The notes below the pieces were generated by a model, which was not told the origin of the DNA, ran no database searches, and worked only from the letters and a program-made list of their open reading frames with translations. From assembly GCA_964537395.1 (NCBI GenBank), contig CAZIBN010000004.1, positions 2,115-66,114 of the forward strand: a DNA stretch of 64,000 nt, read 5' to 3'. Below are positions 27,280-51,561 of the stretch, one piece after another. The position numbers and the translations under genes are program-made. Source of the stretch: an uncultured Elusimicrobia bacterium (GTDB lineage: Bacteria; Elusimicrobiota; Elusimicrobia; UBA1565; UBA9628). Within the stretch, counting starts at the first letter, position 1, and every line of letters starts with the position of its first letter.

Positions 27280-29889
<2,610 letters not shown>

Positions 29890-29917
29890 CTAAAGTTTTT
29901 TCCTCAACGGCATCTGT

Positions 29918-29939
29918 GTCGGGCCGCTTGCGGCCCGAC
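29918..29939 (-). terminator. GC hairpin after the DUF721 gene
   Basis: GTCGGGCCGC-TT-GCGGCCCGAC, a perfect 10-bp stem with no U-tract. Confidence 0.4.
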
Positions 29940-29949
29940 CTAATTCAAC

Positions 29950-30255
29950 TCAACGGTAAGTCGTTTTGACGGCGATGATCCACGGACGGCTAAAATATTT
30001 ATTAAGGGCTTTAAGTAAAACCCCAGACCTCATCTGCAGTTCCTGCGCCGCCGCCGCGCTCTTCGGACGCACGAACAACGTTCCCTTCTTGACGGCCACC
30101 AGCGCCCAGTGCTTCGAGTAGGCGCCGCACTCCTTATCCCAGACAGCGTTCAGCAGCGCCAATTTATCATTGACGGTCCCAGCACGGTACGCAAAGCTCT
30201 TTATCAGGTCGCCGGAGGTGGACCAACGGCCGGGCTTTTCCTTTTCCGTGATCAC
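29950..30255 (-). CDS. DUF721 (DciA-like) domain protein
   Basis: 101 aa. Both its position between dnaN and gyrB and the pattern AVWDKECG...HWALVAVKKGTLFVRPKSAAAAQELQ...LLKALN are typical of DUF721. Confidence 0.75.
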   Translation of the reverse strand: MITEKEKPGRWSTSGDLIKSFAYRAGTVNDKLALLNAVWDKECGAYSKHWALVAVKKGTLFVRPKSAAAAQELQMRSGVLLKALNKYFSRPWIIAVKTTYR

Positions 30256-31370: not shown

Positions 31371-31448
31371 TTAAATCATCCTCTCCTTCATCAAGCGGGG
31401 GATACGGTGGACAACCCTGTTTCCCCAAGAGAAATAAAGACCGGATGG

Positions 31449-31486
31449 TGTGGATAACTATGAGGAGTTATCAACACTGTCCACAA
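31449..31486. promoter_or_regulatory. DnaA box cluster in the dnaA-dnaN spacer
   Basis: TGTGGATAA (31449-31457, perfect), TTATCAACA (31468-31476, 8/9), and TGTCCACAA (31478-31486, degenerate). Confidence 0.7.
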
Positions 31487-31542
31487 CGTTGGGCGCTGTC
31501 CCCAATTATTAGAAGGCGCGCACAGGTTGTTCACAAGCTTCA

Positions 31543-32892
31543 TTATCGTTCAGCCGCTTTTATGTCGGCTTGGAGCTTATTTATGAGTTCCAGAAAAAAA
31601 GGGTCTTCCTCGATCTTTTTTTCTATTTTCTTGCGTGCGTGAAGGACCGTAGAGTGGTCCTTGCCGCCGAAGGCCCGACCGATGTCGGTTGAGGAGAGTT
31701 CCGTCATCTGGCAGGACAGGTACATCGCGACCTGGCGGGGCATGGAGATGGAGACCGTACGCTGATGTCCTTTCAGGTCCTTAACGTCGACGGAATATTT
31801 AAGAGAGACGACCCGTTGGATCGTTTCGACCCGTACTGGAGAGGAATCGTCCACGGTGATAGAGTCTTTTAGAATGTCCCGTGCGTCATCAACGGACAAA
31901 GGGGCGCCGGTCATGGCCTGAAAGGCCTTCAGCCGGATCAGGCAGCCTTCCAGCGCGCGGACGTTGGTCTTGACCGAGGAGGCGATGAAGAGGATGACGT
32001 CGTCGGGCGTGGTAAAGCCTTCATGAGCGGCTTTCTTGCGCAGGATCGCGATCCGGGTCTCGAGGTCCGGTGGCTTGATGTCGGCGACGAAGCCCCATTC
32101 CAGGCGTGAGATCAGGCGCTGCTCGAGGGGGGTCATCTCCTTTGGTGAGCGGTCGGAGCTGACGACGATCTGCTTTCGTGAATCAAAGAGGGCGTTGAAA
32201 GTGTGAAAAAACTCCTGCTCGGAGCGGTCCTTGGCGATCAAAAATTGGATGTCGTCGATGAGAAGGCAGTCGAGCGAGCGGTAGCGGGAGCGGAAGGCGT
32301 CGATCTGGTTGTTCTGTAGGGCGGCGATATACTCATTGACGAATTGTTCGCTGGTGGTGTAGAGAACGCGCGAGCGCGGGTGATGCCTGCGGATCGAGTT
32401 CCCTATAGCGTGCATCAAATGGGTCTTGCCGAGGCCGACGCCGCCGTAGATCACGTATGGATTGTACTGCGTTCCCGGGCTCTTTGAGATCGACTCGGCC
32501 GTCGCGCGCGCGAGGCGGTTTGATTCACCGATGACGAACGAGTCGAACGTGTAGCGGGGGTTGAGCTCTGAGAGGGGAAAGTCGGATTGAGGGGAGGCCT
32601 CGGGCACAGGATCTGATGGAGGAAGCACGCGCGTCAGATCGCGCTCAACGCGGAAGTCGATGCCGATCTCAGTGCCGGATATATCGCGAAGCACGGACAG
32701 CAGACGCTTCTGGTAGCGCTCCTTTATACCGTCGGAAAAAAACTTATTGGGGACCTTCAGCATCAGGACCCCGTCTTCTAATGAGGCGGCTTCCACGGGC
32801 TTGAGCCAAAGCTCGGCATTTTCTTCACCGATCTCCGAACGCAGCCGTTCCACGGTCTGTGTCCAGAGTTCGACTTCGTCGACTTTCTTCAC
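31543..32892 (-). CDS. dnaA: chromosomal replication initiator protein DnaA
   Basis: 449 aa. Carries Walker A GGVGLGKTHL, LLIDDIQF, and the domain IV segment RQVAMYLSCQMTELSSTDIGRAFGGKDHSTVLHA. The GTG start is uncertain because a DnaA box lies 3 nt upstream. Confidence 0.96.
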   Translation of the reverse strand: MKKVDEVELWTQTVERLRSEIGEENAELWLKPVEAASLEDGVLMLKVPNKFFSDGIKERYQKRLLSVLRDISGTEIGIDFRVERDLTRVLPPSDPVPEASPQSDFPLSELNPRYTFDSFVIGESNRLARATAESISKSPGTQYNPYVIYGGVGLGKTHLMHAIGNSIRRHHPRSRVLYTTSEQFVNEYIAALQNNQIDAFRSRYRSLDCLLIDDIQFLIAKDRSEQEFFHTFNALFDSRKQIVVSSDRSPKEMTPLEQRLISRLEWGFVADIKPPDLETRIAILRKKAAHEGFTTPDDVILFIASSVKTNVRALEGCLIRLKAFQAMTGAPLSVDDARDILKDSITVDDSSPVRVETIQRVVSLKYSVDVKDLKGHQRTVSISMPRQVAMYLSCQMTELSSTDIGRAFGGKDHSTVLHARKKIEKKIEEDPFFLELINKLQADIKAAER

Positions 32893-32895
32893 AGG

Positions 32896-32929
32896 TTATC
32901 CACAGATGTGGATAACTAAGTTATCCACA
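32896..32929. promoter_or_regulatory. three perfect DnaA boxes upstream of dnaA (oriC candidate)
   Basis: TTATCCACA (32896-32904), TGTGGATAA (32907-32915), TTATCCACA (32921-32929). Confidence 0.85.
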
Positions 32930-32936
32930 GGATAAG

Positions 32937-32984
32937 AGTTTGTTTTATATGAGTTTATTAACATTATTACATGCAAAAAAATAG
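32937..32984. other. AT-rich stretch (DNA unwinding element candidate)
   Basis: AGTTTGTTTTATATGAGTTTATTAACATTATTACATGCAAAAAAATAG stands out in an otherwise GC-rich genome and is adjacent to the DnaA boxes. Confidence 0.6.
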
Positions 32985-33098
32985 ACCCGAAACGCATGCG
33001 ACCGCGCGCCCTGGAAATCGACCCAGAATCAGACCGCATATTACCAGTTTCGATTCCTTAGAGTCAACCTGTGGCGGTGGAGGATGGCGTCGCATTCG

Positions 33099-33127
33099 TT
33101 GACAGGTCGAGGCCCAAGCGCTAGAAT
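33099..33127 (+). promoter_or_regulatory. consensus sigma70 promoter of hpf, 9 nt from the ATG
   Basis: TTGACA (33099-33104), 17-nt spacer, TAGAAT (33122-33127), ATG at 33137. Confidence 0.7.
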
Positions 33128-33136
33128 CTCACACCT

Positions 33137-33661
33137 ATGGAGATTCAATTAACGGCCAAGCAGCTCAAGATCACCCCCGCTCTGCGCGAGTACGTGCAGC
33201 AGAAGATGGGAAAGACGCAAAAGTATTTTGACCACATCGTTTGGGGCCAGGCTTTTCTTTTCGTGGAGAAGCGCGCTCACAAAGCGGAGATGATCGTACA
33301 CGCTCCGGGGCAGACGTTCAGCGCCGAGGCAACGGCCGCCGACCTCTACTCTGCCATCGACCTCGCGTCCGACAAGATCGACGCGCAGCTCAAGAAGCAT
33401 AAGGAGCGCATCAAGAGCCGCCACAAACCCAAGACCTCCGACACGATGGCTGAAGCTGTGCCTCCCGTCGAGACGTCCTTCGCGGTATCGCGCCAGCCGG
33501 TCTATCCCATGACGCCGGAGCAGGCGTCGTCGGAATTCAACTCTTCCGAACGAGTGTTCCTCGTCTACCTCGACAAGGATACCGACCAGGTTCACGTTCT
33601 CTATCGTCGCGAGGACGAGAGCTTCGGGATCATCCAGCCCGTTCGCAGAATCAAGCGCTAG
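33137..33661 (+). CDS. hpf: ribosome hibernation promoting factor, long form
   Basis: 174 aa. N-terminal RaiA/HPF domain (ITPALREYVQQKMGK...KAEM) plus a C-terminal dimerisation domain (VFLVYLDKDTDQVHVLYRREDESFGIIQP). Confidence 0.9.
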   Translation: MEIQLTAKQLKITPALREYVQQKMGKTQKYFDHIVWGQAFLFVEKRAHKAEMIVHAPGQTFSAEATAADLYSAIDLASDKIDAQLKKHKERIKSRHKPKTSDTMAEAVPPVETSFAVSRQPVYPMTPEQASSEFNSSERVFLVYLDKDTDQVHVLYRREDESFGIIQPVRRIKR

Positions 33662-33665
33662 CCCC

Positions 33666-34616
33666 GTGCACGCCGCGGAACTGACCGTCGGCGAACTCCT
33701 CAAGGAGCAGGGCGAGGGGCTTCGCCTTGAGTTGCTCTGCGGGGAGAAATCCCTCGGCCGCCGGATCACGGTGGCCGATCTCAACCGTCCCGGCCTTGCG
33801 CTCTCCGGATTCCTCGACCGTTTCCGCGCGGAGAGGGTGCAGATCTTCGGCAACGGGGAGCAGGCCTACTGCCAGAAGTCTGACGCCAAGAAGCTCGCCG
33901 ATGCGCTGTCGGCGATGCTGGCCGTCCCCGAGCTTCCGTGCGTGATCGTCACGCATAATGCGCCGGTTCCGCCTTCGCTCGCGCAGGCATGCAAGAAGCA
34001 CGGCGTGCCGCTGATGCGCTCCGCCTATGACACGACGACCTTGACCGGAGAGCTGTCCGAGGCGCTCGAAGCACGCCTGGCGCCGTCGACGACCGTGCAT
34101 GGCGTGCTCGTCGACGTCTACGGGCTCGGCGTCATCATCCAGGGCGATTCGGGCATCGGGAAATCCGAGTGCGCGCTCGAGCTTCTCAAGCGCGGCCATA
34201 TCCTCATCGCCGACGACGCGGTTCAGATACAGCACCGGCGCGGCTCCTATCTGCGCGGCTTTTGCCCTGAGCCGCTCAAGAATCACATGGAGATCCGCGG
34301 CCTTGGTGTCATCGACGTCAAGCTCCTCTTCGGCATCGGCGCGATCCGCGAACGAACGCGCATCGAGCTGGCGATCAAGCTCGAGACGTGGAACGCTGGA
34401 ACGGTGTACGATCGGACCGGCCTCGACGCCAGGAAGCTCTCCATTCTCGACGTGGAGATCCCGCTCATCCGTATACCCGTCAGCCCCGGCCGCAACCTCG
34501 CGGTGCTCATCGAGGTCGCGGCCCTCAATCAGCGCCTGCGCTCACAGGGCTACTTCTCGGCGGAGAATTTCAACCAGCGTCTCATCGAGCGCATGAAGAC
34601 GAAGGAGCGCGGCTGA
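33666..34616 (+). CDS. hprK: HPr kinase/phosphorylase
   Basis: 316 aa. Carries HGVLVDVYGLGVIIQGDSGIGKSECALELLKRGHILIADD and EIRGLGVIDV. Confidence 0.93.
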   Translation: MHAAELTVGELLKEQGEGLRLELLCGEKSLGRRITVADLNRPGLALSGFLDRFRAERVQIFGNGEQAYCQKSDAKKLADALSAMLAVPELPCVIVTHNAPVPPSLAQACKKHGVPLMRSAYDTTTLTGELSEALEARLAPSTTVHGVLVDVYGLGVIIQGDSGIGKSECALELLKRGHILIADDAVQIQHRRGSYLRGFCPEPLKNHMEIRGLGVIDVKLLFGIGAIRERTRIELAIKLETWNAGTVYDRTGLDARKLSILDVEIPLIRIPVSPGRNLAVLIEVAALNQRLRSQGYFSAENFNQRLIERMKTKERG

Positions 34617-35899: not shown

Positions 35900-36381
35900 T
35901 GGGAGTCACCTTGCTGCGCGTCGACGACCGGCTCATCCATGGCCAGGTGGTCGAGGGCTGGGTGCCTTACCTCAAGGTCGACCTCGTCATCGTGGTCTCC
36001 GACACGGCGGCCTCCGATGAGATACAGACCGCGCTGATGAAGATGGCTCTTCCTTCGTCGGTCGGCCTGCTCGTGCTGCCGGTCGTCGAAGCGGCGGCTG
36101 CGTTGAAATCGCCGCAGATCGCGGCGCGGTCCGCGCTCGTGCTTGTTCCCGGACCCGCCGAGGCGTTGGCCCTTGTCGAGAAGGGCGTCGTCGTCGACCG
36201 GATCAACGTCGGCGGCCTTCACTACACGGTCGGCAAGGTGCAGCTCGGCCGCGCGCTTTTCCTTGATGAGAAGGACCGCTTGGCGCTGCGGGCGCTTGCC
36301 GCAAAAGGCGTGCGTCTCGAAGGGCGGGCCCTTCCCGCTGATGCCGAGGAAGATCTGACGGCCGCGCTGGAGGGAAATTGA
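35899..36381 (+). CDS. PTS mannose/sorbose-family EIIB component
   Basis: 160 aa. Carries LLRVDDRLIHGQVV (active His). TAATG overlap with EIIA. Confidence 0.85.
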   Translation: MGVTLLRVDDRLIHGQVVEGWVPYLKVDLVIVVSDTAASDEIQTALMKMALPSSVGLLVLPVVEAAAALKSPQIAARSALVLVPGPAEALALVEKGVVVDRINVGGLHYTVGKVQLGRALFLDEKDRLALRALAAKGVRLEGRALPADAEEDLTAALEGN

Positions 36382-36974
36382 CCACGGCCACCGCCTGCGC
36401 CGTGCTGGCCCTCCTCGAGCTCGATGCGGTGCTCATCGCGCAGACCTTGGTGTCGCGGCCGCTAGTCGTGGGCGCGGTGCTCGGCGCGTTGACCGGCAAC
36501 ACTTTGGCCGGCACGCTGTTCGGCGCGGTCTTCGAGCTGCTGAGCTTGTGCGATCTTCCCGTCGGCGGCTGCCTGACCTGGTCGGCCACGGTCGCGGCCG
36601 GCACGGCGACCTTGCTCGCGGGCCGGGGTACGTCCGTGGCGCTTTGCTTCATCGGGGGCGTCGTTGCCGGGGTCCTTCATTCCCGGGTCGAGGCTCTCGA
36701 GAGGGCGCGCCGTGCGGCGACCGGCGACGCGCTCGTCCTGCGCGCCGAGGCCGGGGACTGGACGCTGGGCCGGGCGCTGGGTCTTTCGATCGCGGCGCAT
36801 GCGGCCATGACTTTCGCTGTGGCCGGCTCCGTCGTTTCGCTCGTCGGCTTCCTGGACGGGCGCTGGTGGGCGGGCGCGCCTGAGTTCATCCGGGGCGGAG
36901 CGGCGCTCGTGTCCTCAAGCGCGCCGTGGATCGGCCTCTCGGGCGTCGTGGCCTGGGGTCTGAGGCGCTCATGA
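36378..36974 (+). CDS. PTS mannose-family EIIC-like membrane protein (short)
   Basis: 198 aa, fully hydrophobic and Gly/Ala-rich. Assigned by its position between EIIB and EIID. It is shorter than typical ManY-type EIIC proteins. Confidence 0.65.
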   Translation: MTTATACAVLALLELDAVLIAQTLVSRPLVVGAVLGALTGNTLAGTLFGAVFELLSLCDLPVGGCLTWSATVAAGTATLLAGRGTSVALCFIGGVVAGVLHSRVEALERARRAATGDALVLRAEAGDWTLGRALGLSIAAHAAMTFAVAGSVVSLVGFLDGRWWAGAPEFIRGGAALVSSSAPWIGLSGVVAWGLRRS

Positions 36975-37759
36975 GCGAGCGGATGATGACGCCTTGGATG
37001 AAGGCCTGCATCGGCGCGCGCCTGCTCCTTCTTCAGGCGCGGTGGGATCCGGCTCGGATGCAGGGCCCGGGCTTCGCCTTCGCGCTCGAGCCGTGGCTCG
37101 CGGACTGCTGGGCCGCGGAGCCCGAGGCGCTGCTCTCCGCGCGCCGGCGTCATCTCGAGTATTTCAACACGCACCCGATCGCGGCGTGGCTCGTGGCGGG
37201 CATCGTCTGCCGGCAGGAAGCCGCCGCGGCGGCGCTGACGGGTGCGGCTCGCGAGGCGGCGATCGTCAAGATCAGGTCCCTGAAAACGGGGCTAGGCGCC
37301 TCGCTTGCCGGCCTATACGATTCGTTTTTCTGGGGCGCTTTGCGTCCCGTGAGCGCGCTGTCGGGTATTCTCGCCGCCCAGGCGGCCTATCGCCTCGGCT
37401 TGCCGCACGCGCCGGCCTGGGCGGCGGCGACGGCCCTTTTCGTTTATAACATCCCGGCTGTCGCCGCGCGCGCTATCGGCTTGCTGCGCGGAATCTCCGA
37501 AGGGGAGCGCGCCGTGGCGGCGTTGATCAAGCTTCCCGTCCAGCCGTGGATCATCGGGCTTCGCCGGGCGACCGTCGGCGGAGCCCTGGCGGCGTTCGCG
37601 GTCGGCGCGGGACTGCTCGGCGGCGGCGACCGCTTGCCGGTGGCGCTCACCTTCGCGGCGGGCCTGATCCTGACCTGGCGGGGCATTCCGCCGTTCGCGC
37701 AGCTCGGCTTCGCGGGGCTTGGCGGCATCGTCGCGGCGGCCGTCGGGCTGTGGCCGTGA
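36971..37759 (+). CDS. PTS mannose-family EIID-like membrane protein
   Basis: Trimmed to MSERMM (ATGA overlap). The segment LLLQARWDPARMQGPGFAFALEPWL resembles the EIID N-terminal signature (FxLQ..N.ERMQ..G). Confidence 0.7.
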   Translation: MSERMMTPWMKACIGARLLLLQARWDPARMQGPGFAFALEPWLADCWAAEPEALLSARRRHLEYFNTHPIAAWLVAGIVCRQEAAAAALTGAAREAAIVKIRSLKTGLGASLAGLYDSFFWGALRPVSALSGILAAQAAYRLGLPHAPAWAAATALFVYNIPAVAARAIGLLRGISEGERAVAALIKLPVQPWIIGLRRATVGGALAAFAVGAGLLGGGDRLPVALTFAAGLILTWRGIPPFAQLGFAGLGGIVAAAVGLWP

Positions 37760-38022
37760 TGGAAAAAATCATGACGATCAAGAACCGCATGGGCCTGCAC
37801 GCCCGCCCTGCGGCGATGTTCGTCCAGGAAGCGGGCAAGTTCAAGAGCCAGATCTTCGTCGTCAAGGACGGTCTGCAGGTCAACGGAAAGAGCGTCATGG
37901 GCCTCATGCTCCTCGCAGCCGAGAGCGGCTCCAAGCTCACGATCAAGGCCGACGGCCCCGATGAGGCGAAAGCAATCGAGGCCCTGGAGAAATTGTTCGA
38001 GCGCAGGTTCGACGAGCAATGA
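37759..38022 (+). CDS. ptsH: phosphocarrier protein HPr
   Basis: 87 aa. Carries GLHARPA (His15 site) and NGKSVMGLM (Ser46 site). Confidence 0.92.
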   Translation: MEKIMTIKNRMGLHARPAAMFVQEAGKFKSQIFVVKDGLQVNGKSVMGLMLLAAESGSKLTIKADGPDEAKAIEALEKLFERRFDEQ

Positions 38023-41562: not shown

Positions 41563-42564
41563 ATGGAAGAAAGACTTCTGTTCGTCGGTGTCTCCCTCGG
41601 GCTTTTCGCCTGGTACTCCCGCCGCTGGAAGGACCGCGGCGGGCCCGTCTCGCCGTTACAGTCGGCGGCCTGGCACGCGGTGTTCTACGCGATCGCGGCC
41701 TTCTCCATCGTCATGATCCTCACCATGGTGTTCGAGGGCCGCACGAAGGTGATCGCTCTCTGGGCCCGCGCCCTGCGCGTGGGCGACATCATCCCCGCGC
41801 TCACGGCCGCGGCCTTCTTCGCCGTCATCGGCTTCTGGCGCGCGTGGTCCAAGGGCGAGAGCGTGGAAAGCCGCCGATTTTACTTAGATGACGACCTGGA
41901 ATGGGCGGACACCGTGTTCTCCTCGGCCCTGCTCGCCTGGGTCCTCATGACCTTCCTGATCCAGGCGTTCAAGATCCCGTCCGGCTCGATGGAGAAGACG
42001 CTCCTCATCGGCGATCATCTGTTCGTCAACAAGTTCATCTACGGTCTGCGCGTCCCTATCTGGGGCAAGCGCCTACTGTCCCTGCGCTCCGTGCAGCGCG
42101 GCGACGTCATGGTCTTCGAGTTCCCGGTCACGGACCCGCGCGACACGCATTGCGGCAAGATCAACGCGGGTGAGAACTTCATCAAGCGCGCCATCGGCCT
42201 GCCCGGCGAGACGGTCACCGTCAGCAACGGCCGCGTCTTCATCGACGGCAAGCTCATGTCGGACGAGATCTACGCGCAGTGGAATGACTCCTACCGCCAG
42301 CCCGAGTCCGTGCACGCGAAGGAGATCGCTCCGGAGCGCTACCAGCAGCTGTGGCAGGAGCATAAGCTCGATCGCGAGCTCGGCGACATCCAGCGCGACT
42401 TCTTCGGGCCGGTCAAGGTCCCCGCGGGCTCCTACTTCATGATGGGCGACAACCGCGACCACTCCTGCGACTCGCGCTACTGGGGCCCCGTGGACAACCG
42501 CTTCATCAAGGGCAAGGCCTGGTTCATCTACTGGCCGCCGTCCCGCATGAAGGTCGTGCGCTAG
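41563..42564 (+). CDS. lepB: signal peptidase I with extended N-terminal membrane region
   Basis: 333 aa. Carries IPSGSMEKTL (catalytic Ser), KRAIGLPGE and GDNRDHSCDSRYWG. Confidence 0.92.
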   Translation: MEERLLFVGVSLGLFAWYSRRWKDRGGPVSPLQSAAWHAVFYAIAAFSIVMILTMVFEGRTKVIALWARALRVGDIIPALTAAAFFAVIGFWRAWSKGESVESRRFYLDDDLEWADTVFSSALLAWVLMTFLIQAFKIPSGSMEKTLLIGDHLFVNKFIYGLRVPIWGKRLLSLRSVQRGDVMVFEFPVTDPRDTHCGKINAGENFIKRAIGLPGETVTVSNGRVFIDGKLMSDEIYAQWNDSYRQPESVHAKEIAPERYQQLWQEHKLDRELGDIQRDFFGPVKVPAGSYFMMGDNRDHSCDSRYWGPVDNRFIKGKAWFIYWPPSRMKVVR

Positions 42565-43577
42565 GACGCGGCGGCGTAGCCTTCGGGGTTGCCGCTCTGC
42601 CAGCGCCAGGCGTCGGCGCACATGGCGTCCAGGTCGCGCGTGACGGCCCAGCCGAGCTTCTTCTTGGCCAGCGCGGCGTCGGCCCAGATGGCGGCGGAGT
42701 CGCCCGGGCGGCGCGGCATGATCTTGTGCGGGATCGCCTTGCCGGCGGCCTTCGCGGAGGCGGCGATGAGCTCGAGCACGGAGTAGCCGCGGCCGGCGCC
42801 GAGGTTGACGGCCTGAGCGCCCTTAAAAGAGTCGATCTTGTCTAACGCGGCAACGTGGCCGAGTGCGAGATCGACGACATGGATGTAGTCGCGTACGCCG
42901 GTCCCGTCGTGCGTCGGATAGTCCCCGCCCCAGACGTTGACGAATTCGCGGCGGCCGACGGCGGTCTGCATCACGAACGGCATCAGGTTGTTGGGGATGC
43001 CGCGCGGGTCCTCGCCGATACGACCGCTCTCGTGGGCGCCCACGGGATTGAAGTAGCGCAGCAGCGCCATCTTCCAGCGCTTGTCCTCGCTGGCGAGCTC
43101 GTAGCACATATCTTCGATATCGAGCTTTGTCTTGCCGTACGGATTGACGGCCGAGCGCGGGTGGCGCTCGTCGACGGGGTTCTTCTCCACGGCGCCGTAG
43201 ACGGTGCAGGACGACGAAAAAACGAGACGCCGGCAGTCAGTCTTTTCCATCGCGGCCAGCAGGTGATGAGTGCCCAGGACGTTGTTATCAATGTAGAGCT
43301 GCGGCTTCTCGACGGATTCGCCGACGGCCTTGAGGCCGGCGAAGTGCATCACGGCGTCGAATCCCTCGCTCACGAGGGCGTCGAGCCCGTCGGGGTCGCG
43401 CAGGTCTAGCTTCTCCAGGCGCATGGGCTTGCCCGCGAGCGCTTTGACGCGTTCGATCGACTCCGGCGACGAGTTGCTGAAGTTGTCGAAGCCGACGACC
43501 TCGTGGCCCGCCTTCAGCAGCTCGAGGCAGGTGTGGCTGCCGATGTATCCTGATGCGCCGGTGACGAGGACTTTCAT
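42561..43577 (-). CDS. galE: UDP-glucose 4-epimerase
   Basis: Trimmed to MKVLVTGASGYIGSH. YGKTK is the YxxxK motif. ATGA overlap with the upstream ATP-grasp gene. Confidence 0.92.
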   Translation of the reverse strand: MKVLVTGASGYIGSHTCLELLKAGHEVVGFDNFSNSSPESIERVKALAGKPMRLEKLDLRDPDGLDALVSEGFDAVMHFAGLKAVGESVEKPQLYIDNNVLGTHHLLAAMEKTDCRRLVFSSSCTVYGAVEKNPVDERHPRSAVNPYGKTKLDIEDMCYELASEDKRWKMALLRYFNPVGAHESGRIGEDPRGIPNNLMPFVMQTAVGRREFVNVWGGDYPTHDGTGVRDYIHVVDLALGHVAALDKIDSFKGAQAVNLGAGRGYSVLELIAASAKAAGKAIPHKIMPRRPGDSAAIWADAALAKKKLGWAVTRDLDAMCADAWRWQSGNPEGYAAAS

Positions 43578-46042
43578 CAGAACGGGGTCATCGCGCTCTG
43601 CAGGTGATAATAAGGAGGGCGCGCGCGGTACCGCGAGATGCACTCCTTCATGATCTCCTCGATGAAGTCGGCGTAGTTGTGGCCGATCACCTCGGCGCAG
43701 GCGGGCACGCAGTCGCCGTCGGAGATCGACGGGTTGGGGTTGATCTCGAGGATGTACGGGTTGCCCGAGCGGTCGATGCGGACCTCGATGCGCGCGTAGT
43801 CGTGGCAGTCGAAGATGCGGTAGGCGTCGAGGCAGATCTCCGAGATCAGCGCGGAGAGCTTCAGCGAGTACTTCGCCGGGCGCTCGACGCGGATCTTCGA
43901 ATAAACGGAATTGTCTTCCCACTTCGCCTGGTAGGGGTAGATGCCCCAGGTGCCCTTGGGCAGCTCGTCGAAGATGGAGCGCGACAGCGGCAGGACCTTC
44001 ACGCGCTCCTCGTTGCCCATGATCGAGACGTCCACCTCATCGCCCTCGATGAACTCCTCGATGAGGACGGGGCGGTTGTACTTCTCGAGCAGCATCGCGA
44101 CCTGATCCTTGAGCGCCTTGAGGCTCGTGACGACGCTGTTGTTGCTGATGCCGATCGAGTTGTCCATGTTCGCCAGCTTGACCATCAACGGATAGCGGAG
44201 GTCCTCGCGGATGGGCTCGTTCTTCTCGAACACATAGTCGAACTTGGGGGTGGGGAGGCCGTGCTGCTCCAGGATCTTCTTCACCTTGATCTTGTCGATG
44301 CACAGCGCCAAGGTCAGGGGATTGGAGCCCGTGTACGGGATCCCGAGGCAGTCCAGGATGGCGGCGGCGTGGGGTTCCAGCAAGGATGAGTTGTTGATGC
44401 GTTCGCAGACGTTGAAGATCATGTCCACGTTGGCGTTGGCGATCTTCTCGAACGGCAGCGGAGTCTCGTTCATATCGAAGAACGTGACCTTATGGCCCTT
44501 GGACTCGACGGCCTTCTGGATGTTGCGGCCGACCGAGGTCAGGTCGGAATGCACCGCGCCTTCTTCGCCGCCTTCGGGGTCGTAGATGTTGCAGAGGATA
44601 CCGACGTGAAGGGATTTCTTGTCGAAACCGGTCCCGCGCACCTTTTCGATCCGCGCGGATTGAAGGATGCGGCGGCGGGAGACCTGTGCCGCGCCGAAGC
44701 GGTTCTTGCGCCGGGTCTTTCCCAATGACGAGGTGGAATCGAATCTCACGATGTTGACGGACACCCCGTGGATCGCTTCGTCGAGGTTCTCCTCGGCTTC
44801 GGCGTAGGTGTCGCCGCGGCCGACGACCCAGCCGATCGTCTCGAAGCCTTCCGGCGGCACGAGCACGGCGTCGCCGGGCTCCTTCTGCACGGCGATCTCG
44901 AGGACCCTGAGCGGATCGGGCTTCTCCTGCGGGAGCGTGACGCCGGTGACGACGCCGGAGTACTCCGGGATCAGGTACCTGCCGACGAGGTGGCATCGAG
45001 GGTCCTTGAGGCGCTTGGGGTGGCAGGGCTGGCCGATGGCGATGCGCGCGGCCTCCTCGATGACGTCCACCTCCCAGATGGTCTTGATCCAGTCGTAGAG
45101 GTAGTCGCCGCCCATGCGCGCGTTGATCTCGACGAGCTTGGGGCCGGCGGACGTGATCTTAGCCTCGAGGTGCAGAGCGCCGTTGGTGAGGCCCAGGGCC
45201 TTGACGACCTCCTTGGCCATCTTCAGCACATCGGAGAGGTCCTTGTCCTCATGGCGCGACGGCATCGCGTCGCCGGTCTCGACGAAGAAGGGCTCCTTGG
45301 TGGGGAAGTTGTCGTTGAAGGCATGGAACTTGATCTCGCCGTTCTGGACCAGGAGGTCGGCGTCGATCTCGGCCCCGTCCATGAATTCTTCGGCCAAAAT
45401 ATCCGTGCCGTATTTATAAATAGGGTCGAACGCGGGCGTCATGTTGGTCTTGATGTAGTCGAGAGCCTTCTTCGCCTCGTCGAGGGTGTCGAGCTTGACG
45501 ACGAACTGCGACTTCACGCCCCACGCCGGCTTGAGCACCAGCGGGAATCCGATGCGCGCCGCGGCCTTCTCGAGGTCGGTGTGGCTCTTGATGAGCGCCC
45601 AGGCGGGCTGATACTTGCCGAGCTTGGCGTTCTCGAGCGTCTGGCGCGTCAGATATTTGTTCCGGGCGTTGAGGGCGGCCTGAGGCGTGTGGCCGATCCA
45701 GCCGAAGCGCTGGGCGAGCGTGGCGCACAGGGGCACCGCGTTCTCCCAGAAGGTGATGACGCCGTCGATCTTCTCGGTTTTGACGAGCTCCTCGATCTTG
45801 GCCATGCACGCGACCTCGTCGAGCGGGTCGCATTCGACGAAGCCGTCGGTGATCTTGCTGACCCAGTTCGCCTCGGAGGACATCAGGATCATCTTGGAGA
45901 AGCCCAACTCCTTGAGGCGCTGGTAGATGAACTTTTTCTTCGGGTTCGGAGAAGAGATGACGAGGAGGGTCTTGTCCTTGAGATCGGAGGCGGGCTCGGC
46001 GATGGCGGGCTCGGCGTGGTTCATGAAGATAGTGTATGGCAT
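43577..46042 (-). CDS. fusion protein with two ATP-grasp ligase modules (N-terminal L-amino-acid-ligase/carnosine-synthase-like, C-terminal D-Ala-D-Ala-ligase-like)
   Basis: 821 aa. N-terminal half: FPLVLKPAWGVKSQFV, EEFMDGAEIDADLLV, HLEAKITSAGPKLVEINARMGGD. C-terminal half: YPLMVKLANMDNSIGIS, LIEEFIEGDEVDVSIMG, ARIEVRIDRSGNPYILEINPNPSIS. The start is uncertain (46042 or 46024). Confidence 0.8.
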   Translation of the reverse strand: MPYTIFMNHAEPAIAEPASDLKDKTLLVISSPNPKKKFIYQRLKELGFSKMILMSSEANWVSKITDGFVECDPLDEVACMAKIEELVKTEKIDGVITFWENAVPLCATLAQRFGWIGHTPQAALNARNKYLTRQTLENAKLGKYQPAWALIKSHTDLEKAAARIGFPLVLKPAWGVKSQFVVKLDTLDEAKKALDYIKTNMTPAFDPIYKYGTDILAEEFMDGAEIDADLLVQNGEIKFHAFNDNFPTKEPFFVETGDAMPSRHEDKDLSDVLKMAKEVVKALGLTNGALHLEAKITSAGPKLVEINARMGGDYLYDWIKTIWEVDVIEEAARIAIGQPCHPKRLKDPRCHLVGRYLIPEYSGVVTGVTLPQEKPDPLRVLEIAVQKEPGDAVLVPPEGFETIGWVVGRGDTYAEAEENLDEAIHGVSVNIVRFDSTSSLGKTRRKNRFGAAQVSRRRILQSARIEKVRGTGFDKKSLHVGILCNIYDPEGGEEGAVHSDLTSVGRNIQKAVESKGHKVTFFDMNETPLPFEKIANANVDMIFNVCERINNSSLLEPHAAAILDCLGIPYTGSNPLTLALCIDKIKVKKILEQHGLPTPKFDYVFEKNEPIREDLRYPLMVKLANMDNSIGISNNSVVTSLKALKDQVAMLLEKYNRPVLIEEFIEGDEVDVSIMGNEERVKVLPLSRSIFDELPKGTWGIYPYQAKWEDNSVYSKIRVERPAKYSLKLSALISEICLDAYRIFDCHDYARIEVRIDRSGNPYILEINPNPSISDGDCVPACAEVIGHNYADFIEEIMKECISRYRARPPYYHLQSAMTPF

Positions 46043-46116
46043 TCTCCGTCGAGAATCAAACCGCCGCGCCCGTCCCCATTCGTAAAGGCGCGCGAATCGG
46101 CTACAATGTGGGAATC

Positions 46117-46581
46117 ATGGCTCCGGATTTGAATCTCGTCGGCCTCTCCGCACCGGTGCGGCACGCTCTGCAGGCGCTCGCGGTCGTGGCCGCGCGCCCC
46201 GGAATGGCGCTGGAGCTGACGGGTATCGCGCGCCGCTTCGACCTTCCGGAATCCGCGCTTGCCAAAAGTTTTCAGATGCTCGTCCGGGAGGGCGTGCTGA
46301 ATTCCCGGCGCGGCCCGAACGGAGGCTATCGCCTGGACCGTCCGGCGAGCGAGGTCACGCTTGCGGAGGTGATCTCAGCGCTCGGCGGCAACGATCGCCG
46401 GCATGGGCGCTGCCTGCTCGAGGAGCGTGCGTGCTCCGCCGGCGGCGCTTGCGCCCTTCACGCCGCCGCCGTTGAGGCCGACGAGCGGATGCGTTTGGCC
46501 CTGCGCGCGTTGACCTTGGCCGATCTTAAAATACCGCGGCGCGCGAGTCGGCCCTCGAAGGCCGGTCCGCGCGCCGCGTAG
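46117..46581 (+). CDS. Rrf2 family transcriptional regulator (NsrR-like candidate)
   Basis: Trimmed to MAPDLN. wHTH segment IARRFDLPESALAKSFQMLVREGVLNSRRGPNGGYRL, and three Cys in RCLLEERACSAGGAC. TACAAT (46102-46107) lies 9 nt before the ATG. Confidence 0.8.
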   Translation: MAPDLNLVGLSAPVRHALQALAVVAARPGMALELTGIARRFDLPESALAKSFQMLVREGVLNSRRGPNGGYRLDRPASEVTLAEVISALGGNDRRHGRCLLEERACSAGGACALHAAAVEADERMRLALRALTLADLKIPRRASRPSKAGPRAA

Positions 46582-46584
46582 ATC

Positions 46585-48849
46585 TTAAACGAGCTCGGGC
46601 ACGCGCTCGGGAAGCGGCTCCGGCTTGCGCTCCTCGGCGAACGAGTGCCCGGTGGCCAGCCCGATCATGAAGAGGATCAGCGCGACGGCCCCGAGAGCGA
46701 ACACGGTGTCTCCCGGCGCGCGCATCCAGCGCAGGTTTGCCATCAGCGGCGTCTGCAGGAACTCCGGGCTGCGGGCGTACCAGTAGCCCGTGTCGATCGA
46801 CGCGACGGTCTGCAGAAGCCCGATGGGCAGCAGGCTCATCAGGCACATCGCCATCAGCCCGCCGTTGAGGCCCCAGAACGCGAACTTGATCAGGCCGTCC
46901 TTCCAGCGCCGTCCCGCCGTCGCCAGGCGCAGGCAGAACAGCATCAGGCCGATGCCGAGCATGCCGTACACGCCGAACAGCGCCGCGTGGCCGTGCAGGG
47001 GCGTCGTGTTGAGCCCCTGCATGTAATAGAGCGCGGCCGGCGGGTTGATCATGAAGCCGAACAGTCCCGCGCCGACCATGTTCCAGAACGCGACGGCGAC
47101 GAAGAACATCAGCGGCCAGCGGTAGTCTCGCACCCACGGCGCGGCCTTCGAGATGCGCAAGGTGTCCCACGCCTCATAGCCGATCAGGACCAGCGGCACG
47201 ACCTCGAGCGCGCTGAACACCGAGCCCAGCGCCAGCGCCACCGTCGGCGTGCCCGAGAAATACAGGTGGTGCAAGGTCCCGATGATGCCGCCCGCGAGGT
47301 AGATCGTCGCGGCGAGCAAGGTCGCCGAGGCGGCCTTGGCGTCGTCGACGAGCCCCATCTTGGAGAACAGAAAGGCGATGATGACGGTCGCGAACACCTC
47401 GAAGAAGCCCTCGACCCACAGATGCACGACCCACCAGCGCCAGTACTCGACCATGGTCAGGTGCGTGTGCTGGCCCCAGGAGAGGCCCGCCCCGTAGAAG
47501 CCCGCGATCGCGACCGCGGAGACGAGGAACAAGCCGAGAAGCTTCGACGTGCCGGGCTTGGCCTCGATCATCGCCGGGATCACGCAACGCCCGACGAGCG
47601 CGAGCCAGATCAGCAGGCCCGCGAACAGCCCGGCCTGCCACACGCGCCCCAGCTCGACGTACTCGTAGCCCTGGTGGCCCCACCAGAACCAGTTGGTCCC
47701 GGAGAACTTGTGGAACACGCTCATCCACTCGCCGGCGAGCGAGCCGACGACGATGACGACGAGCGCGAAAAGCAACACCCCGACGCCCAGACCCTGATAC
47801 TTGGGCTCGCGGCCGAGTATGATCGGCGCGATGAACAGCCCCGCGGCGAGCCAGCTCGTCGCGATCCAGAACAGCCCGAGCTGTATGTGCCAGGTGCGGG
47901 TCACGACGTACGGGAGCCAGCGGTCCAGCGGCATGCCGAAGAAGCCGTCGCCCTCGACGCCGTAATGGGCCGTGACGATGCCGACGCCGATCTGCGCGAG
48001 TATGAGGCCGGCGACGGTGATGAAGTACGGAATCGTCATCTTCTGCGACGCCGTCAACTTGAGGCCGAGCAGCGGGTCGCGAGCCGGCACGTCCTTCTTG
48101 GCGTGCTCGCCGCCGGCGCCCGCGTAATACCAGACCATCGCGCTGATGCCGCCGAGGAGCATGAGGATGCTGATGCCGGTCCAGAACAGCGCGGCGCCGG
48201 TGGGGCGGTTGCCGATCAAGGGCTCGTGCGGCCAGTTGTTCGTGTAGGTGTGGCTGCTGCCCGGCCGGTTCGTCGACGCGGCCCAGGAGGTCCAGAAGAA
48301 GAACGCGGACAGCTTCAGCGCCTTGTCGGGGTCGCTCACGGCGCCCTTGGGCATCGCGTAGGCCTTTCGGCCGTTGGAGAACACGTCGCTGTAGTGCTTG
48401 AGATTGGAACGAAACGCCGCCGCGCGGGCGGAAGAAACCGTCAGGCGCCCGGTCGCCGCGTCGTAGCCGCTGCTGCGGAACATCGTCTCCAGGCGCTGTC
48501 GCAGGGCCGCTTGGCGCTCGGCCGGAAGGGCCGCGTAGGACCCGGCCTTTTCCGCCTTGGCCCAGCCGTCGAGCACGACGATGAGCTCGCGGTGCAGCCA
48601 GTCGGCCGTCCAGTCGGGGGCGACGTAGGCGCCGTGGCCCCACACCGAGCCGACCTGCATGCCGCCCAGCGCGCGCCACACCTTCTGGCCTTCGGCGATC
48701 GCTCCTTCGGGGAAAAGGGCCGCGCCGGTCTCATCGACGACCTCAAGCGGGATCGGCGGCTTGTGGTTGTTCATCTCCACGCCGACCCAGCCCAGGACGG
48801 CGAACGACCCGACGATCACGACGGTGAAGGCGGCCCATAGCTTTCTCAT
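46585..48849 (-). CDS. norB: nitric oxide reductase, single-subunit quinol-type (qNOR/NorZ-like)
   Basis: Trimmed to MRKLWAAF (AGGAGC Shine-Dalgarno 6 nt upstream), 754 aa. N-terminal TM plus periplasmic domain, then a 12-TM heme-copper-oxidase-like core (WGHQGYEYVELG, HHLYFSG, HGHAALFGVYG). Confidence 0.88.
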   Translation of the reverse strand: MRKLWAAFTVVIVGSFAVLGWVGVEMNNHKPPIPLEVVDETGAALFPEGAIAEGQKVWRALGGMQVGSVWGHGAYVAPDWTADWLHRELIVVLDGWAKAEKAGSYAALPAERQAALRQRLETMFRSSGYDAATGRLTVSSARAAAFRSNLKHYSDVFSNGRKAYAMPKGAVSDPDKALKLSAFFFWTSWAASTNRPGSSHTYTNNWPHEPLIGNRPTGAALFWTGISILMLLGGISAMVWYYAGAGGEHAKKDVPARDPLLGLKLTASQKMTIPYFITVAGLILAQIGVGIVTAHYGVEGDGFFGMPLDRWLPYVVTRTWHIQLGLFWIATSWLAAGLFIAPIILGREPKYQGLGVGVLLFALVVIVVGSLAGEWMSVFHKFSGTNWFWWGHQGYEYVELGRVWQAGLFAGLLIWLALVGRCVIPAMIEAKPGTSKLLGLFLVSAVAIAGFYGAGLSWGQHTHLTMVEYWRWWVVHLWVEGFFEVFATVIIAFLFSKMGLVDDAKAASATLLAATIYLAGGIIGTLHHLYFSGTPTVALALGSVFSALEVVPLVLIGYEAWDTLRISKAAPWVRDYRWPLMFFVAVAFWNMVGAGLFGFMINPPAALYYMQGLNTTPLHGHAALFGVYGMLGIGLMLFCLRLATAGRRWKDGLIKFAFWGLNGGLMAMCLMSLLPIGLLQTVASIDTGYWYARSPEFLQTPLMANLRWMRAPGDTVFALGAVALILFMIGLATGHSFAEERKPEPLPERVPELV

Positions 48850-48880
48850 GTGTATGCTCCTCATAAACGGCTTGTGAATT

Positions 48881-50617: not shown

Positions 50618-51361
50618 TCAGAACGCGTCGCTGAAGCTCGTCGTCATGGCCTTGTCGCCGCCATGGCCGTCGTCGTCATCGCCGGGCATATCCTTGCCAT
50701 TATTGCCGCTGCCGTTGTTGTTGCCGCCGCCAGAGTTTCCGGAGCCGCTTGAGCCGGGGGCGGAGTTGGCCGCCGCGCCACCGGTGCCGGTGGTCGTCCG
50801 GGTGAACGTATCGGGGTTCGGCGGAGGAGGGGTATCCTTGGGGCCCTGCTGGACGCTGGGCGCGCGCCCCACATCGAACGCCTTGCGCTTGTTCATCGCG
50901 ATCTCGCCGGCGTCCGTCGTATGGGTGCGGGTTTCCGCCTTCTCGTAGACGGGTTGCTGGCCCGTCGTGCGGATCAGGGCGCCGGGCTTGCTGAAATTAG
51001 GCGGCGCCTCCTCGGTGCTGGGTGTAGGGCCGCCGTCGAGTTTGCGTCCGCCGCTCCAGAACGCTTTGCCGCCGCGGTGCACCGCGCGGCCCGTTGTGCT
51101 GCGGGAGACGACTTGGCGTCCCCCATAGAAGGTCTGATTGCCGGCGCCGGTGTAGCCGCCGCCCGAGGATGTCGCCTGCGGCGCGCCGGCGTTCGCCGAA
51201 GCGCCGCCTCCGGGGGTGTTCACGGTGAAGACGCGCGGCGCGGCCGGGGCCGCGGTCGAGGTGCGGCCGTTGACCGTGTTGAAAGGCTTGTTCGCCCGTT
51301 GCTCAGCCATGGCCGTTTGCGCGGCAAGAACGGCGATGACGGCGGAAATGAGGACTGTCAT
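50618..51361 (-). CDS. secreted low-complexity Gly/Thr/Pro/Asn-rich protein
   Basis: Trimmed to MTVLISAVIAVLAAQTAMA (signal peptide). The remainder is low complexity (GSSGSGNSGGGNNNGSGNNG, TPPPPNP) with an acidic tail. Confidence 0.6.
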   Translation of the reverse strand: MTVLISAVIAVLAAQTAMAEQRANKPFNTVNGRTSTAAPAAPRVFTVNTPGGGASANAGAPQATSSGGGYTGAGNQTFYGGRQVVSRSTTGRAVHRGGKAFWSGGRKLDGGPTPSTEEAPPNFSKPGALIRTTGQQPVYEKAETRTHTTDAGEIAMNKRKAFDVGRAPSVQQGPKDTPPPPNPDTFTRTTTGTGGAAANSAPGSSGSGNSGGGNNNGSGNNGKDMPGDDDDGHGGDKAMTTSFSDAF

Positions 51362-51561
51362 GGATCCCCCCAAAGCCCTAGGAGTATAGCCCCGGAACCT
51401 CAAAAAGTCATTACACGATGCTAAAAAATCGGTAAAGAACTGGACCCCCCCAAAATATGTAGAATGGCCGTTAGCCGGGGGCCCTCTCCCGTCTCATAAT
51501 CGTAATATGAGGGTGTCATACTCTGTGCTCAAGCCGCACTAATAAAGGGAAGGAGAATTTT

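Follow-up and report, generated by a model that had tools for sequence, protein, structure and literature searches.

The ligase described here joins two different ATP-dependent amide-bond ligases, which to judge from their sequences are apparently both active, in one polypeptide chain, and it belongs to a widespread, uncharacterized protein family. Its gene is located in a 64,000-nucleotide stretch of DNA from an uncultured Elusimicrobia bacterium, which was analyzed as a whole and is referred to as the window. Tripeptide or oligopeptide synthesis is the best reading of its function: We infer sequential action, a small-peptide product, and a corresponding physiological role, and assign a probability of roughly 45% to a two-site enzyme with a tripeptide-like product. 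No simpler makers of peptide bonds without a ribosome are known than ATP-grasp ligases, which are wanted as biocatalysts; a natural enzyme with two different ligase sites on one chain would be a compact means of producing defined tripeptide-like molecules. The gene is composed of the following parts:

43577..46042, minus strand: complete ORF of the fused double ATP-grasp ligase, 821 aa, stop codon included (ORF translation, Pfam)
44744..45985, minus strand: N-module, aa 20–433, L-amino-acid-ligase (LAL)-type ATP-grasp (ATPgrasp_N, ATP-grasp_4, LAL_C2)
44618..44743, minus strand: linker, aa 434–475 (family alignment, AF2)
43598..44617, minus strand: C-module, aa 476–815, Ddl-like ATP-grasp (Pfam, NCBIfam, PDB, family alignment)

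The 821-aa frame and all motifs quoted in the initial annotation are present in the translation, and the ORF is confirmed by homologs of 805–830 aa that cover 97–100% of its length. Translation may start at M7 (46024), a methionine conserved among the homologs. Pfam locates ATPgrasp_N at aa 52–114, ATP-grasp_4 (PF13535) at aa 164–313 (80.4 bits, cut-off 27), LAL_C2 (PF18603) at aa 355–431 (42.3 bits, cut-off 29.4), and Dala_Dala_lig_C at aa 593–798 (121 bits, cut-off 24). The AF2 model has a pLDDT of 87.8 and a pTM of 0.63, the latter leaving the placement of the modules relative to each other uncertain. Sequence searches of the PDB and Foldseek searches with this model assign a LAL fold to the N-module and a Ddl fold to the C-module, which, together with the Pfam result, bears out the annotated presence of two distinct ATP-grasp ligase modules in one chain. 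Degeneration of one module, which had been considered at that stage, is not seen: Both modules are intact in the ligase and in its ~100 closest family members.

Fourteen LALs have been characterized (PMC9486568). The N-module falls into this group by sequence and by fold: The ATP-grasp_4 core and the LAL C-terminal domain 2 both score above the Pfam cut-offs, and Foldseek aligns the module with 3vot at E = 2e-28 and a target-normalized TM of 0.86, RizA and BacD likewise being among the top matches. It has the domain set ATPgrasp_N, ATP-grasp_4, and LAL_C2 as well as the catalytic motif E..E.N.R in common with BL00235 (3vot), RizA (4wd3), BacD/YwfE (3vmm), and LdmS, but its identity to the LALs is only 19–22% and it is joined to a second ligase via a conserved basic linker. 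All 104 sequences of the family alignment retain K129, K171, E293, and R309; 99 of them have E305, 102 have D313, and at least 95% of the members have E218. E293, E305, and R309 align with E311, E324, and R328 of BacD. D313, the invariant Asp of the motif RMGGDY, occupies the position of BacD Trp332, the residue that restricts the size of the N-terminal substrate. To our knowledge, none of the 14 characterized LALs has the fused double-ligase architecture.

The C-module has its fold in common with DdlB (PDB 2dln) and VanA-type ligases (TM 0.85–0.87), and all ATP, Mg2+, and transition-state residues of Ddl are also present in it: K97, K144, E180, K215, R255, D257 (as E), E270, and N272, in E. 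coli DdlB numbering verified against PDB entries 1iov/2dln, are kept in 41/41 and 104/104 sequences. Invariant in the ligase's own numbering are K584, K622, S629, E662, K707, R751, E753, E766, and N768; the family motifs are FNVCERINNSSLLEPH, AKW, and NPNPSIxxGD, and a conserved tail reads R804-Y..PPYYHLQ. In contrast, the Ddl specificity residues are replaced family-wide (H63→N, S150→N, Y216→W, S281→D, L282→C), and the HGRGGEDG loop of Ddl becomes CERINNSSLLEPH. The NCBIfam Ddl models PRK01372 and TIGR01205 reach 180.2 and 153.7 bits against cut-offs of 243 and 245.65, and the ligase is therefore not a housekeeping Ddl. Assignment as D-alanine–D-alanine ligase (EC 6.3.2.4) was accordingly rejected, the scores lying below the curated cut-offs and the D-Ala-binding residues being mostly replaced; the C-module represents a separate subfamily with standalone members in Woesearchaeota. 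For Ddl Glu15, the local alignment leaves two possible equivalents, E494 (64/104 sequences) or A496, and the position is not invariant; because of this ambiguity the claim that the residue was lost was dropped.

The two modules are connected by the basic linker already noted in the initial annotation, which proves to be conserved across the family. It carries the motif F434-x3-S438-S-[IL]-G441-K-T-R-R445-K-N-R-F, followed by a helix (residues 456–470); AF2 predicts residues 436–445 and 451–454 to be disordered (pLDDT < 50).

Two ligase sites in one chain have precedents in GshF and CphA1 (PMC9427784). GshF produces a tripeptide in two ATP-dependent steps at two ligase sites of one chain, and the ATP-grasp module at its C-terminal site elongates a dipeptide at the C-terminal carboxylate (PMC9427784). 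The fused ligase resembles GshF in having two sites per chain, but its first module is an ATP-grasp LAL and not a GshA-type glutamate–cysteine ligase (GCL): Neither Pfam nor NCBIfam detects a GCL domain in it, and GshF is not among its PDB sequence matches. In CphA1, two distinct sites of one polypeptide form amide bonds at the expense of ATP and take turns in doing so (PMC9427784). Here too the number of distinct sites per chain is the same, but the second site of CphA1 is a Mur-ligase-type domain and its N domain holds the polymer, both of which the fused ligase lacks; Pfam finds no Mur-ligase domain in it, and CphA is absent from the PDB matches. The large subunit of carbamoyl-phosphate synthetase (CPSase) is the only solved protein known to carry two ATP-grasp units per chain. 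Foldseek aligned it over both modules, at an rmsd of ~20 Å, a TM of 0.29, and 12–13% identity, and CPSase_L_D2 reaches only 20.3 bits in the ligase, too little for membership in the CPSases, which have two homologous CPSase_L_D2 units together with oligomerization and MGS-like domains. The two units of CPSase, moreover, are duplicates of each other and act on bicarbonate and carbamate, which they phosphorylate, whereas the modules of the ligase are two different amino-acid-ligase types. Domain content (Pfam/NCBIfam) and Foldseek thus agree with the earlier statement that GshF, cyanophycin synthetase, and CPSase are built differently. The same holds for the statement that no characterized enzyme is known to have this architecture: All scores against curated NCBIfam families are under the cut-off, sequence and Foldseek searches found no such architecture among solved PDB structures, and literature searches on the fused architecture, tandem ATP-grasp, Elusimicrobia with ATP-grasp, and DUF2156 with ATP-grasp gave nothing relevant.

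As a two-site peptide synthetase, the ligase would be bifunctional, forming amide bonds at two independent ATP-grasp sites of a single chain. With Mg-ATP bound, each site would phosphorylate the carboxylate of its substrate, and an amine would then attack the resulting acyl-phosphate; this route is the established ATP-grasp mechanism. On this reading, the C-module is a Ddl-derived ligase with rebuilt D-Ala pockets. The sites would act one after the other on small amino-acid-type substrates, yielding a tripeptide-like product from a dipeptide and a third amino acid or amine, a mode of action similar to that of GshF but with other modules. The ligase would thereby form a self-contained single-gene unit, with the galE overlap and the divergent Rrf2 gene discussed below as accidents of gene order local to one Elusimicrobiota lineage.

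Full-length fusions are found in at least 80 species-level genomes of several phyla, including Elusimicrobiota (the source lineage), CPR/Patescibacteria, DPANN archaea, Lysobacterales, and the cultured Elongatibacter sediminis, and in most of the best 120 of 181 matching 90%-identity clusters; across phyla, the N-modules share 38% identity and the C-modules 59%. Many lineages with ultra-small genomes (CPR, DPANN), in which nearly every retained gene counts, keep the family as a gene that stands alone, and a cultured carrier, E. sediminis CH-27, opens the function of the ligase to experiment. One apparent split homolog with separate N and C genes (P0116, locus L008) was discarded as a frameshift artefact, because Clp, aminotransferase, and epimerase genes are likewise broken on that nanopore-assembled contig.

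The distribution of the family also bears on the strongest competing explanation, which we regard as rather unlikely: The two sites could be independent, each producing its own dipeptide or amide with no feeding between them, so that the fusion would provide an intramolecular pseudo-heterodimer or co-regulation. This is what the reciprocal degeneration in more distant fused clusters suggests, in which the C-module residues are lost (P0133–P0139) or E305, N307, and R309 of the N-module are lost (P0130); with one site dead, two successive reactions are therefore not a strict requirement of the fusion, which may in part be a structural pseudo-dimer. Either module also occurs alone (N-like P0146, C-like P0150 family), and tandem proteins with two Ddl-like modules (~640–800 aa) are common. 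Against this, both sites are invariant in the ligase's own clade, which comprises ~100 sequences from several phyla, and a partner GNAT family is tied to both module types, which suggests one pathway: In the Rosetta-stone protein P0182, a LAL-like module with the RMGGDY motif is fused to Acetyltransf_6, and in Woesearchaeota operons a gene resembling LPG_synthase_C (the MprF C-domain) lies ~15–125 nt downstream of the standalone C-like ligase in 3/3 contexts examined. An HMM of the Acetyltransf_6-like family matched one of five Woesearchaeota LPG_synthase_C-like proteins, and that one weakly (13 bits); the two are treated as belonging to one superfamily rather than as orthologs.

The gene neighborhoods in other lineages point to short-peptide assembly. 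A Fem-like GNAT gene (Acetyltransf_6) lies directly downstream of the ligase in 19/80 loci, and a MurL-like gene adjoins it in nine of the ten loci that have one, eight of nine such members matching the MurL model (best E-value 6e-10). Further recurrent neighbors are a dipeptide-epimerase-like gene of the enolase superfamily, a third ATP-grasp gene, and a LysA-like decarboxylase. PDB sequence searches with the Acetyltransf_6-like and MurL-like families returned nothing useful. Homologs of these informative neighbor families were not found in the 64-kb window by tblastn, and the evidence from context therefore derives from homologs of 43–50% identity. In the pathway to N-acetylglutaminylglutamine amide (Ngg/AsnO), Ngg unites a GNAT and an ATP-grasp ligase and acts together with a PP-loop enzyme, and in mycosporine biosynthesis an ATP-grasp ligase (MysC) is followed by a Ddl-like ligase (MysD). 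As possible leads, both resemble these neighborhoods with their GNAT, MurL-like PP-loop protein, and extra ATP-grasp; none of the loci showed genes for 4-deoxygadusol or of the asparagine-synthetase type. That Fem/MprF-like transferases and peptide epimerases repeatedly accompany the ligase hints at an undescribed small-peptide or envelope pathway. It is a tentative and on balance unlikely extension of this hint that the ligase forms the core of an unrecognized route of peptide assembly without ribosome or NRPS, in which aminoacyl-tRNA-transferase-like GNATs of the Fem/MprF type together with MurL-like and dipeptide epimerases would be partners. Such a route would be common to CPR bacteria, DPANN archaea, Elusimicrobiota, and some Gammaproteobacteria, organisms whose envelope chemistry is mostly unexplored, and would supply a short peptide, possibly containing D-amino acids, as an envelope building block or protective solute.

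The same neighbors could be read differently, namely that the acceptor is large or tethered. It might be a protein, an envelope precursor (a UDP-MurNAc-peptide-like molecule, a lipid-linked amine, or an aminoacyl-lipid), or, as with cyanophycin synthetase, a poly-amino-acid chain under elongation. GNATs resembling Fem and the MprF C-domain, the MurL-like epimerase, and the L-Ala-D/L-Glu-epimerase-like and LysA-like neighbors are typical of peptidoglycan-peptide or aminoacyl-lipid chemistry, and the linker with its GK[TS] motif is basic and invariant yet predicted to be disordered; a phosphate-rich or acidic partner could thus bind to it. In addition, SET-domain and HU genes recur near the ligase in CPR loci, and one Elusimicrobia genome has a Peptidase_M14 gene as the immediate upstream neighbor. 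We nevertheless consider a tethered acceptor improbable: The closest characterized relatives (LALs, Ddl) take small free substrates, Pfam detects no carrier, Mur-ligase, primer-binding, or membrane domain in the ligase, the gene is present in DPANN archaea without murein, and the SET/HU synteny may stem from common ancestry of closely related CPR genomes. That one module of the window's ligase is a non-catalytic pseudo-enzyme serving as scaffold or regulator, leaving effectively a single ligase, is highly improbable: Although this state does occur in distant members of the fused family, all checked ATP, Mg2+, and transition-state residues are present in both modules here and invariant in the clade.

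The genes next to the ligase in the window itself are the following:

42561..43577, minus strand: galE, UDP-glucose 4-epimerase, 338 aa, directly downstream of the ligase gene (TIGR01179)
43575..43579, minus strand: TGATG junction of the ligase stop TGA and the galE ATG, one-base overlap (sequence)
46117..46581, plus strand: divergent Rrf2-family regulator (family match; start chosen to avoid overlap with the ligase)
46585..48852, minus strand: quinol-dependent NO reductase (qNOR) gene, tail-to-tail with the Rrf2 gene

The initial annotation had described a 4-nt ATGA overlap with galE and considered it compatible with an amino-acid-decorated sugar or nucleotide. The actual junction is TGATG, with the ligase stop at 43579–43577 and the galE ATG at 43577–43575, i.e., an overlap of 1 nt, and the suggestion finds no support, a GalE neighbor occurring in only 6/80 related loci (five close Elusimicrobiota and one CPR). 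It is accordingly very unlikely that the ligase and GalE, their genes translationally coupled for this purpose, attach amino acids to a UDP-sugar or glycan. The stop/start overlap and the GalE product, which is genuine (TIGR01179, 400 bits, cut-off 262), would fit such a role, as would the spacing to the ligase of −63 to +4 nt in four of the six loci; in the other two it is 231 or 348 nt. In the P0021 locus, an epimerase gene lies ~1 kb downstream. However, the epimerase is absent from 74/80 loci, and likewise from the Elusimicrobia loci L001 and L005, the Nanoarchaeota locus, and the Peregrinibacteria locus; Pfam detects no nucleotide-sugar-binding domain in the ligase; and GalE is a housekeeping enzyme whose gene sits in a conserved PtsI–LepA–LepB–…–ClpC backbone into which variable genes are inserted. 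With galE beside the ligase in so few loci and Rrf2 not recurrent, the idea of an amino-acid-decorated sugar is therefore unsupported; we judge galE to be a lineage-specific neighbor outside the function of the ligase, and the link between the two genes looks local and incidental.

Searches for promoter and terminator signals in 42300–46700 gave no more sites than the shuffled expectation, and no Rrf2 operator-like inverted repeat was found in the intergenic region 45980–46140. The divergent regulator probably starts at 46117 and not at 46036, since an ORF from the latter position would be longer and run into the start of the ligase. Its identity as an Rrf2 family member, as annotated, stands, but a functional link to the ligase is not supported: Rrf2 does not recur in those related loci that were examined, and the corresponding position in other Elusimicrobiota is taken by a CLC channel gene, a peptidase gene, or some other gene. 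We regard the Rrf2 gene as a probable local insertion that does not belong to the ligase system.

The fused ATP-grasp ligase gene was translated into an 821-residue protein, in which all motifs quoted in the initial annotation are present; its start may be Met7. The following features were assigned, each Pfam match lying well over its gathering score:

43577..46042, minus strand: fused ATP-grasp ligase ORF, 821 aa, translation
aa 52–114: ATPgrasp_N
aa 164–313: ATP-grasp_4
aa 355–431: LAL_C2
aa 593–798: Dala_Dala_lig_C

In PDB sequence searches, the N half finds its top solved relative in the L-amino-acid ligase (LAL) BL00235 (3vot, E = 2e-24), with RizA and BacD next, and the C half finds its own in D-Ala-D-Ala ligase (Ddl) entries (3r23, E = 3e-23). 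An AlphaFold2 model computed from 104 family sequences (mean pLDDT 87.8) was matched by Foldseek to 3vot for the N-module (TM 0.86) and to Ddl structures for the C-module (TM 0.85–0.87). The N-module passes the tests for the LAL group in sequence and in fold, and Pfam domains, solved relatives and folds together bear out the earlier view of two different ATP-grasp modules, an LAL-type N half and a Ddl-type C half. Carbamoyl-phosphate synthetase is the only structure that Foldseek aligned with both modules at once, yet at an rmsd of about 20 Å; the LAL-Ddl architecture was therefore not found among solved structures by PDB sequence searches and Foldseek, nor was a description of it found in the literature searched, in agreement with the initial annotation, to which no characterised enzyme of this build was known. 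GshF, cyanophycin synthetase and carbamoyl-phosphate synthetase, which had been set apart as differently built, were each rejected as the family of the fused ligase on their own defining domains. GshF produces a tripeptide through two ATP-dependent steps (PMC9427784), a manner that the fused ligase would share, but its modules differ and its defining domain is missing here. Fourteen LALs have been characterised (PMC9486568). The LAL-Ddl fusion is a new architecture, an uncharacterised and widely distributed family made from two known ligase types; its chemistry is the expected one.

A word-indexed search gave 181 clusters, and most of the best 120 of these 181 measure 805–830 aa at 97–100% query coverage. 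Identity to the window protein in the cluster search is 60–94% within Elusimicrobia and 44–53% in the other groups listed, and the database names are generic (“ATP-grasp domain-containing protein” or “D-alanine-D-alanine ligase”). When clusters are drawn at 50% identity, about 15–20 consist of colinear fusions. Scanning a single genome for each GTDB species yielded 518 matching stretches, a count that takes in standalone C-like genes besides the fusions, since both search patterns sit in the C-module, and at least 80 full-length fused loci. The search for the fused architecture across genomes, suggested at the outset, thus found it in at least 80 species genomes of several phyla, the carriers among those listed being Elusimicrobiota, Woesearchaeota, Diapherotrites, many CPR/Patescibacteria lineages, Lysobacterales and Longimicrobiales. 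The closest match among the loci listed is from Elusimicrobiota (97% identity), and a cultured carrier is Elongatibacter sediminis CH-27, whose homologue (43% identity) keeps all catalytic residues of both modules. Across phyla, identity is higher in the C-module (59%) than in the N-module (38%).

For the C-site, E. coli DdlB (sequence of PDB 1iov/2dln, identical over 306/306 residues) was aligned with C-modules from 41 diverse members of the family, and the columns were rechecked in a 104-sequence alignment. The DdlB residues K97, K144, E180, K215, R255, E270 and N272, which serve ATP, Mg2+ and the transition state, are kept in 41/41 C-modules, D257 (Mg2+) is replaced by Glu in all 41, and the matched columns are also invariant across the 104 sequences. 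The D-Ala pocket is altered: H63 and S150 become Asn, Y216 Trp, S281 Asp and L282 Cys in the fused family. The DdlB loop HGRGGEDG is an invariant CERINNSSLLEPH in the C-module, and the equivalent of E15 (D-Ala1 amino group) is ambiguous, with A496 as one candidate and E494, found in 64/104 sequences, as the other. Against the curated Ddl models the window protein reaches 180 and 154 bits, where the cut-offs are 243 and 246. The C-module passed the catalytic-residue test, fell short of the Ddl family cut-off and failed the test of the D-Ala pocket; judged by its kept catalytic residues, altered pocket and sub-cut-off scores, it is an active-looking Ddl-superfamily ligase, predicted not to be a D-Ala-D-Ala ligase. 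In DdlB, the incoming D-Ala presumably meets Ser281 through its carboxylate. The invariant Asp at this position hints, speculatively, at a C-site nucleophile other than an ordinary α-amino acid bound in the Ddl fashion, with an amine or basic side chain as equally speculative candidates. Of the N-module residues, K129, K171, E293 and R309 do not vary in the family, and E218, E305 and D313 hardly do. A HMMER alignment places E293, E305 and R309 against three BacD residues, which we take to be E311, E324 and R328, with D313 presumably opposite Trp332. Catalytic residues are present at both sites, and neither module of this protein shows the degeneration that would have refuted the initial reading.

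Recurrent same-strand neighbours were identified by clustering the flanking ORFs, called by a simple script, of the 80 listed loci, and this evidence is drawn from homologues at 43–50% identity:

Recurrent same-strand neighbours of the fused ligase
Acetyltransf_6 protein, ~300 aa (Fem-like double-GNAT clan): in 19 loci, 1–41 nt downstream in most of them, with three or more distinct kinds of surroundings
Third ATP-grasp protein: directly downstream in 4 loci
Enolase-superfamily protein: 3 loci, top family L-Ala-D/L-Glu epimerase (213 bits, under cut-off)
LysA-like PLP decarboxylase: 5 loci, 1.3–2.5 kb downstream
SET-domain proteins: 9 loci
Small GNAT: immediately upstream in 5 Gammaproteobacteria/Gemmatimonadota loci

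The SET-domain proteins may recur because the CPR genomes concerned are related by descent. The GNAT link is strengthened by two separate findings, independent of each other. In the homologous protein P0182, an LAL-like module with the same RMGGDY motif is fused to Acetyltransf_6. In Woesearchaeota, standalone C-like ligases carrying the shared motifs NVCER..EPH, AKW and NPNPGIS are followed, at ~15–125 nt, by LPG_synthase_C-like genes (MprF C-domain family), one or two in number and homologous to each other, in 3/3 contexts examined. This recurrent operon of an NVCER/AKW-subfamily ligase and paralogous LPG_synthase_C-like gene(s) lies in three related loci:

L091 6001–9113
L093 6001–9359
L089 6001–8117

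Homologues of the recurrent partner families were not found within the 64-kb window. In one Elusimicrobia locus, the ligase is preceded on its own strand, at 30 nt, by a Peptidase_M14 (carboxypeptidase) gene (L001 6751–7971); none was seen in other loci. The loci L030–L045, L056, L073–L075, L080, L081 and L087 are labelled “uncultured Gammaproteobacteria/Pseudomonadales” at 28–51% GC, several stemming from binchicken co-assemblies, and several of these contigs share the CPR gene order TPM-RlmH-AlkD-SIMPL-ligase-GNAT-SET-HU; some labels of low-GC contigs with CPR synteny are doubtful and may be wrong.

In ATP-grasp enzymes, Mg-ATP phosphorylates a carboxylate and an amine then attacks the acyl-phosphate. 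Both sites of the fused ligase would follow this established chemistry, and two such steps would lead to a tripeptide-like molecule in the manner of GshF, with different modules. We tentatively favour this product, at a probability of roughly 0.45, because both modules have, as their nearest characterised relatives, enzymes that join small amino-acid substrates, because the two sites are intact and the fusion is kept as a self-contained gene, and because the partners that recur elsewhere modify or extend peptides.

Fused clusters at 31–38% identity show reciprocal decay of sites (alignment A4): in P0133–P0139 the C-module counterparts of K215, R255, E270 and N272 are lost and the N-site is kept, and in P0130 E305, N307 and R309 of the N-module are lost and the C-site is kept. 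In all these distant clusters the linker residues F434, S438 and G441 are invariant, despite the predicted disorder of this segment in the AF2 model, and standalone N-like and C-like proteins are without the linker motif. This pattern suggests a structural interdependence of the two modules and a distinct function for the linker itself.

The alternatives to the tripeptide-like product are taken in order of our confidence, the last two ranking equal. Two independent ligase activities in a pseudo-heterodimer are rather unlikely. An acceptor that is large or tethered (envelope precursor, protein or polymer) is less likely again, set against the small substrates of the nearest relatives. That one site is silent, as in the distant clusters, is highly improbable for a protein with both sets of catalytic residues. 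With the tripeptide-like product still preferred, its identity, the CPR/DPANN distribution, the conserved partner set and the linker make the fused ligase a worthwhile and tractable target.

Just as improbable as a silent site is sugar decoration linked to galE, with which the initial annotation had called an ATGA overlap compatible. The neighbours had been named correctly, GalE being genuine and the divergent gene an Rrf2-family regulator (start more likely at 46117), but the junction is actually TGATG with a 1-nt overlap. GalE adjoins the ligase in only 6/80 loci listed (5 close Elusimicrobiota, 1 CPR), a CLC channel takes the position of Rrf2 and the quinol-dependent NO reductase (qNOR) in two close relatives, and variable genes are inserted on both sides of the ligase within the housekeeping backbone PtsI-LepA-LepB-...-ligase-...-aminotransferase-ClpC of the window lineage; there is therefore no support for a functional tie of the ligase to galE or the Rrf2 regulator. 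Further features of this region are:

46117–48852: Rrf2-family regulator (plus strand), tail-to-tail with a quinol-type NO reductase gene (minus strand; NorB cytochrome-c-like domain and COX1)
lepB (plus strand, end 42564) and galE (minus strand, end 42561): convergent, stop codons overlapping by 4 nt, no terminator space between
50618–51403, minus strand: 261-aa ORF of Gly-, Pro-, Thr- and Ala-rich composition, no Pfam match, between the aminotransferase and ClpC genes

The Rrf2 and NO reductase genes look like a pair inserted locally, and the regulator may belong functionally to the NO reductase, not to the ligase. A 261-aa gene also occupies the position equivalent to 50618–51403 in the locus of the homologue P0021. 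The GC content of the window is 0.53–0.58 at 28000–34000, 0.70 at 36000–38000 and ~0.62–0.65 elsewhere.

Related modules occur in other arrangements. On a Peregrinibacteria contig, two complete Ddl units (Dala_Dala_lig_N + C, twice) are joined in tandem in a 799-aa protein (L003 1800–4199), encoded 4 kb upstream of an LAL-Ddl-like fusion, and the representative search returned many proteins of 640–730 aa with two Ddl-like stretches (e.g., P0168, P0184, P0190). In the same search, LAL-like modules closely related to the N-module appeared in large proteins (P0147, P0154, P0155, P0158, P0162), at or near the C-terminus in those of 1100–1600 aa and internally in one of 5940 aa; in the four scanned, which leave out the 5940-aa protein, the remaining 650–1200 residues are mostly without a Pfam match.
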